NCBI RefSeq assembly: GCF_003334785.1
Contig: NZ_QOWV01000035.1
Strand: one strand, 5' to 3'
Origin: Escherichia coli
GTDB taxonomy: Bacteria > Pseudomonadota > Gammaproteobacteria > Enterobacterales > Enterobacteriaceae
DNA length: 8,879 bases
The notes below the pieces were generated by a model. The model worked only from the letters and a program-made list of their open reading frames with translations. It had not been told where the DNA came from and made no database searches. Position numbers and translations under genes: made by a program. Shown here piece after piece: positions 8,414 through 8,827 of this stretch (position 1 is its first letter; each line of letters opens with the position of its first letter).

Positions 8414-8827
8414 TTATACAGGCCAGTTGATGGATCGATTGTTATCAATGATATCTTTATGAGTCGGTGTCTCACCCAGCTTACCGAAGCTGGCATAAAG
8501 TGAAGGCAGACGGGCCCGTCCTTCTCCCTTTTTCGCCAGAGGGAAAGCGCGAAGCATGGTGGCAGCCTCCCAGTCACAACAATAGGATGGTGTGCACGGC
8601 TGCTGACGCCATGATTCAGCGATAGAGCCGGAAAATACGGGGTCAAAGCCGGTATCATTAACCAGAGTCATCGTGACCTGTACTGCGGCTGGATGATCTC
8701 CTGCTACTGCAACTGCTAGGCGACCGCGGCTCCCTTCAGGTAGTCTGTTGTGGTCAACTAAAACTGGCCTCCGCGTTAGAGTTTTTCCAGTATCGGTTTT
8801 CTGATTCGTTTGGTGGTAACCCACCAT
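8414..8827 (-). CDS. Hypothetical protein, 137-aa ORF of unknown function; possibly the remnant of a gene disrupted by the adjacent IS-like end
   Basis: It is the only long ORF in the 1-kb right flank. It has an ATG start with an in-frame upstream stop and contains a Cys cluster ([14 protein letters not shown]). I do not recognise the family. Its first ~27 codons lie inside the IS911-like terminal sequence (8746 onward), which suggests the native 5' end may have been replaced. Confidence 0.3.

Follow-up and report, generated by a model that had tools for sequence, protein, structure and literature searches.

The closest described counterpart of the locus studied here is yjhV (b4286), a pseudogene of Escherichia coli K-12 that belongs to the KpLE2 phage-like element and is located between fecE and IS911B. 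The gene has been treated as a passenger of the fec genes in the K-12 KpLE2 element, in plasmids and in P4-like prophages (PMC7750360). The window, which denotes the whole stretch of 8,879 nucleotides of E. coli DNA analyzed in this study, carries fecIRABCDE on the plus strand and presents the identical locus beyond fecE. Its tail (7857-8879) shares 99.6% identity with K-12 over 1023 bp, and the K-12 pseudogene maps onto positions 8414-8743 (330 nt; annotation carried via the alignment). No difference of substance was found between the window and K-12 yjhV. The 137-codon ORF found at this position is the already annotated E. coli pseudogene yjhV, a known and ordinary feature, by which an apparent orphan is removed from the window and the origin of the ORF is shown. 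The features of the locus are as follows.

7089..7856, plus strand: fecE, final gene of fecIRABCDE and convergent to the remnant (ORF list and RefSeq annotation)
8204..8220, minus strand: terminator-like hairpin in the fecE-yjhV spacer, CGCTCTGGCACAGAGCG followed by AAATTTTTTG (T-run), found by pattern scan only
8230..8413, minus strand: native 3' flank of the oxidoreductase gene, where homology to Raoultella (85%) continues for 184 bp past the stop and ends at ~8230
8414..8745, minus strand: yjhV remnant, running from the second base of codon 139 through codon 248 to the native stop codon TAA (8416-8414)
8414..8827, minus strand: ORF of 137 aa with an ATG start (ORF list and codon table)
8414..8671, minus strand: internal ORF of 85 aa in the frame of the 137-aa ORF, starting at Met53 of the latter (PGAP call WP_000177060.1)
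8747..8827, minus strand: fortuitous N-terminal extension of 27 codons, read from orfB in its +1 frame and through the right inverted repeat (three-frame translation and codon table)
8746..8879, minus strand: right end of an IS911-family (IS3 family) element, with the 3' end of orfB and the right inverted repeat, continuing past the window end

We regard the ORF as a dead gene fragment, namely the pseudogene yjhV, truncated by an IS911-family element and accidentally extended, with a probability of about 0.94. The fragment is most likely without function. This reading is built on the observed position of the junction, on homology, on an intact IS-free relative and on a uniform truncation point, which are described below.

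The 137-codon ORF and its CTPSYCC motif (C78-T-P-S-Y-C84-C85 in the product) are real, and the nearest in-frame stop upstream lies at 8845-8843 by direct reading of the sequence. The K-12 annotation marks the homologous 330 nt alone as a pseudogene and not the 137-codon ORF, whereas genomes annotated by PGAP carry the 85-aa CDS, labelled 'hypothetical protein' or 'NAD(P)-binding domain-containing protein' (RefSeq, two 100%-identical E. coli chromosomes). RefSeq labelling of one and the same DNA is thus inconsistent. The 85-aa product was also found as protein cluster P0008, and the annotated product lengths at the locus differ, being 137, 85, 181 or 159 aa. Two ORFs overlap the remnant in other frames, one of 87 aa at 8395..8658 (minus) and one of 52 aa at 8467..8625 (plus), and the former was seen in Raoultella too (L009 7547-7798). 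Both are frame shadows of the real gene and not genes. Screening with Rfam returned zero RNA families anywhere in the window.

Parent family and fold of the truncated gene

A Pfam scan of the 137-aa product gave nothing significant (DRL_cat alone, i-E 0.11), and an NCBIfam scan returned zero families at E<=1. The Pfam domains of the family sit in the missing N-terminal part. The parent family surfaced not from profile scans of the fragment but from full-length homologs and a reconstructed 248-aa query, in which the N-terminus from Raoultella was joined to the C-terminus from the window. A total of 6,711 proteins were found with this query at E<=1e-20, the best of them uniformly 248 aa in length with PF03446 and PF03807. 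Sources of the 248-aa family include Pectobacterium, Serratia, Raoultella, Enterobacter, Dickeya, Acinetobacter, Pseudomonas, Rhizobium and others, and the family is common in Enterobacterales, Pseudomonas and rhizobia. The sequence-only reading had called the ORF an orphan that could not be placed in a known family. Neither description holds, as thousands of full-length homologs exist despite the lack of a significant Pfam or NCBIfam match for the fragment, and the ORF is the C-terminal 44% of the 248-aa NAD(P)-binding oxidoreductase family (PF03807/PF03446).

Full-length PF03446/PF03807 proteins from the homolog search align with the ORF from its residue 29 on. Residues 29-137 correspond to residues 140-248 of the intact protein P0079 with 97% identity (107 of 109 or 110 residues), and the same segment is 92% identical (101/110 positions) to the protein of Raoultella terrigena. 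The TAA stop codon is common to the remnant, P0079 and the R. terrigena gene, and the C-terminal part of the ORF is collinear with the 248-aa family up to this native stop. Between the remnant and Raoultella, synonymous changes (18 codons) exceed non-synonymous ones (9).

The 248-aa proteins, which carry the database names 'NADPH-dependent F420 reductase' and 'predicted dinucleotide-binding enzyme', share the 3' flank and the YCCD motif with the window copy. The window copy differs from them in lacking residues 1-139, the GxGxxG Rossmann motif, the promoter and the neighbouring HxlR regulator. Intact members possess MKIGIIGTGNIGG at residues 1-13; the N-terminal Rossmann part with GxGxxG is absent from the window ORF, in which homology begins at family residue 140. 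Note that the name F420 reductase is doubtful for the 248-aa family, since the reconstructed protein scores 27.8 bits with TIGR01915 (npdG) against a cutoff of 149.8, below the equivalog threshold. It is a label at the family level and not a demonstrated function.

An AlphaFold model of intact P0079 (pLDDT 94.1, pTM 0.92) displays a Rossmann-type alternation of strands and helices that spans residue 2 to about residue 178, with three further helices at the C-terminus. Truncation behind residue 139 takes away the modelled strands and helices of residues 2-137; five of the seven strands and the GxGxxG loop (7-12) are among them. What is left in the model comprises strand 148-154, helix 157-169 and strand 173-178, which form the last beta-alpha-beta unit of the nucleotide-binding domain, together with the C-terminal helical tail. 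The nearest folds to the intact relative are SMa0349 (4HUJ), the NADPH oxidoreductase domain of STEAP3 (2VNS) and the F420:NADPH oxidoreductase FNO (1JAX, 5N2I), with Foldseek E values of 1e-13 to 1e-10 and TM scores of 0.6-0.8. Sequence matches to these proteins reach down to E 2e-9, yet identity is just 25-28%, and the 248-aa family is distinguished by ~45 additional C-terminal helical residues and the CC pair. The modelled fold predicts that a fragment deprived of the nucleotide-binding core cannot bind NAD(P)H or act as an oxidoreductase.

The IS-free state of the locus

P0079 is encoded on three short public contigs (L006, L007 and L008). The IS-free contig L008 (SRA run SRR31535658) is 99.4% identical to window positions 6539-8745 over 2207 bp. 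This match breaks off at precisely 8745, the base adjacent to the IS end, and L008 then runs on through codons 139 to 1. Its intact 248-aa gene (305-1051) is convergent to fecE/fecD (1608-2924), with a spacer between fecE and the gene of 556 nt in L008 and 557 nt in the window. In the two other contigs the 248-aa gene is divergent from a gene for a 122-aa HxlR-family regulator, an arrangement which is also present in Raoultella terrigena. According to the IS-free contig, the fec island once carried an intact, HxlR-linked NADPH oxidoreductase gene beside fecE.

DNA of R. terrigena aligns at 85% from about 8230 to exactly 8745, and this species was the sole return of a genome-collection scan for the uninterrupted target site. 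In strain NBRC 14941 the 248-aa ORF is intact (L009 7033-7779) and lies beside the divergent HxlR gene. The sequence-only reading had proposed a gene truncated at its 5' end by an IS and fortuitously extended, and the junction was confirmed at base resolution by K-12, L008 and Raoultella. Homologs of the IS-free state are 248 aa in length, not 137 aa with a conserved N-terminus, and the truncation idea stands. In a second R. terrigena genome (GCA_901420665.1, L005 8001-8760) three single-base indels were found, and the gene is called as a 181-aa 'arogenate dehydrogenase'. The indels are probably long-read assembly errors.

The window and L008 differ at 14 sites in 2207 bp, ten of which are in the 332-bp remnant and nine of those within 8627-8741. 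Nine codons differ in window 8458-8741, six of them synonymously, while fecD, fecE and the spacer together hold just four differences. The clustering of differences in the remnant is more suggestive of an allelic or recombination patch than of decay after the truncation. Downstream of the remnant, the terminator-like hairpin (8220-8204) sits just past the end of the Raoultella homology and may be the terminator of the ancestral gene. The region 8204-8230 is probably an old junction of the oxidoreductase module and the fec module.

The IS911-family end and the N-terminal extension

Frame 0 of 8746-8879 (minus) encodes the C-terminus of an IS3-family OrfB transposase with its stop TGA at 8756-8754. 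The right inverted repeat (IRR) finishes ...CCACAACA at 8746, after the orfB stop, and the annotated end of K-12 IS911B-1 maps onto this same base. The order of OrfB C-terminus and then an imperfect inverted repeat ending in 5'-...CA was found as in IS911 and IS3 ends. The window element thus shares with IS911 (IS3 family) the OrfB C-terminus, the terminal ...CA and the imperfect pair of left (IRL) and right repeats. The copy at this locus is distinct in that its transposase is frameshifted and annotated as a pseudogene, and its IRR tip reads TGTTGTGG versus TGAAGTGG in IRL. The whole element of ~1.25 kb was seen in L002 and in genomes that match the window tail at 100% identity; at its left end, ~1.25 kb away in L002, stands TGAAGTGGTTTACTGAATTTGGCCACC.... 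A duplication of the octamer TGAAGTGG was observed at IRL (L002 6120-6160). A search for inverted repeats with 9-nt seeds missed the IS ends because the repeats are too imperfect, and they were read by eye.

The 134-bp IS end was found at 8,873 places in 3,906 of the 5,426 complete E. coli genomes, annotated as IS3, IS911 or ISEc52 transposase. Up to 24 copies per genome are present, on both chromosomes and plasmids, and this multicopy sequence occurs with unrelated flanks.

The earlier placement of about 27 N-terminal codons inside IS911-like sequence proved exact, comprising 27 codons and the first base of codon 28. Codon 28 (AGA, 8746-8744) spans the junction, and only its first base belongs to the IS. 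By our own estimate, about one in four random stretches of 28 codons is free of stops ((61/64)^28), which makes the IS-derived extension unremarkable. The openness of the ORF is no chance signal, because codons 29-137 are the native frame of a real gene with its native stop.

In a MAFFT alignment, IS-encoded residues were set against the family segment 'RPVIKAFNNIL' by way of a gap of 10 columns, and a tblastn match with P0030 ran on into the IS likewise. Both were judged coincidences, since this DNA belongs to the IRR of IS911, found at thousands of unrelated sites, and since DNA homology to the IS-free relatives goes no further than 8745. Over 8747..8827, no homolog of the 248-aa family matches in the alignment except via a forced gap. 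Rare E. coli alleles were observed in which the OrfB C-terminus is in frame with the yjhV remnant, through an indel in P0002 (181 aa) and through a deletion that fuses the two in P0003 (159 aa). Such fusion alleles denote that the reading frame at the junction is not conserved.

Origin, spread and alternative readings

Residues 1-139 were searched for in genomes identical to the window, and no piece of them turned up, either in the window itself or up to about 4 kb past the IS. The element is not bordered by a 3-bp target duplication: its right flank is GAC and its left flank CTC (TGG when the flank is taken to include the duplicated TGAAGTGG). On the far side of the IS, the flanking DNA does not resemble the oxidoreductase locus and contains a hypothetical gene and an AbiJ-NTD4 gene. 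The missing target duplication, the unrelated far flank and the absence of the 5' half indicate that the present arrangement is not a simple insertion. We infer that the 5' half and the regulator were lost by later deletion or IS-mediated rearrangement, the order of events being part of that inference.

Further IS activity was observed around this end of the island. In strain 2012C-4606 (L001 6338-7494), an IS600 lies just past the IS911-family element and splits the neighbouring hypothetical gene, which is a further sign of an IS hotspot at the flank of the fec island. In K-12, IS911B is broken by IS30 and an IS600 fragment.

The yjhV remnant is present in 2,686 of the 5,426 complete E. coli genomes, and the junction of spacer, remnant and IS is whole in 2,637. 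None of the 5,426 has the intact gene or more than 44% of it. Among 30 records sampled across the ranking, the remnant starts at nucleotide 416 in 29. In O145:H28 RM13516 (NZ_CP006262.1 3676657-3676826) only nt 578-747 are left, unannotated, with a further 162 nt lost. The truncation looks like a single, old event within the fec island, and the junction, at one nucleotide in 29/30 sampled records, offers a convenient marker of the island's single ancestry.

The history of the locus may be proposed as follows. The DNA beside fecE once held a gene of 248 codons whose product was an NAD(P)H-dependent oxidoreductase resembling FNO and STEAP; in relatives, the gene is divergent from an HxlR-type regulator gene. 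An IS911-family element now abuts it after the first base of codon 139, and the GxGxxG Rossmann core, the promoter and the regulator gene are missing from the locus. Its final 109 codons are still open up to the native stop, presumably for want of time or cause to decay. The 3' end of the transposase gene, read in frame +1, happens to offer a stop-free run of 28 codons with an ATG, and an ORF of 137 codons results by accident. The fragment would then have been kept by hitch-hiking with the fec iron-dicitrate island.

The alternative that survives best, though we consider it improbable, is a real fusion gene born at the IS junction, in which a product of 137 or 85 aa is made by read-through from IS911 or from an IS-borne promoter and has a function of its own, e.g. 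in interactions of the C-terminal helices. The ORF is intact and shares its orientation with the IS transposase gene, read-through from which would thus include it, and the remnant is retained in 2,686 of 5,426 genomes. For yjhV, an RpoD promoter has been assigned in a genomic SELEX table (PMC3946193), and a photo-crosslink between AceF and YjhV is listed in a proteome-wide XL-MS study on bioRxiv (10.1101/2022.09.20.508727); both are in keeping with a fusion gene. As single high-throughput entries they are weak leads, which would imply, if genuine, that some product is made.

However, no Shine-Dalgarno sequence precedes the ATG at 8827, nothing more than a weak AGG precedes the ATG at 8671, and a promoter scan returned nothing upstream of the ORF within the window. 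The annotators are split over the start (137, 85, 181 or 159 aa). The N-terminus, which is the out-of-frame 3' end of the transposase gene, is not preserved, as rare frameshift variants join OrfB to the remnant. Moreover, the cofactor-binding core is missing from the fragment, RM13516 has lost 162 nt more, and the K-12 copy of IS911 is itself disrupted by IS30 and IS600. Linkage to fec fully accounts for the retention of the remnant. The suggestion of a real IS-junction fusion ORF made by the sequence-only reading is accordingly not supported, PGAP calling only the 85-aa ORF and K-12 annotation a pseudogene. Thousands of genomes keep the reading frame intact to this day; a recent origin combined with hitch-hiking would explain this, although it is no proof of non-function.

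Somewhat less probable again is that read-through from IS911 leads to weak translation of the remnant, as 137 or 85 aa, and that the product has a secondary role, e.g. binding AceF (pyruvate dehydrogenase E2). If true, this would illustrate how an IS junction can give rise to a new protein.

A small Cys-rich metal-binding protein of an unplaced family is very unlikely. Metal binding by the C-x4-CC motif had been suggested, and the CC pair of Y-C-C-D is indeed present in all 28 aligned 248-aa members, with the first Cys retained as well in the enterobacterial ones. However, the first position is C, S, A, G or L across the alignment, being S, A, G or L in many members, and only the CC pair is conserved. 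None of the three Cys (ORF residues 78, 84 and 85) is found in five relatives of 219-231 aa. An adjacent pair of Cys is not, by itself, a usual metal site. The model places the motif (residues 189-196 of P0079) within the NAD(P)H oxidoreductase fold, in a loop that follows helix 180-186, and not in a separate Cys-rich domain, and zero metal-binding families were matched in Pfam or NCBIfam. By the alignment, the CC pair is a hallmark of the 248-aa subfamily; none of these results indicates a metal site, and the Cys motif is irrelevant to the dead fragment.

The weakest alternative, a spurious ORF of no genic ancestry that is open by chance in non-coding DNA, is suggested by the fragment's lack of a significant Pfam or NCBIfam match and by the shadow ORFs in other frames at 8395..8658 (minus) and 8467..8625 (plus), but it is refuted by the family search, the alignment and the IS-free L008, as 109 residues are 97% identical to intact 248-aa proteins with a common stop codon and synonymous codon changes outnumber non-synonymous ones (18 versus 9) in the comparison with Raoultella.
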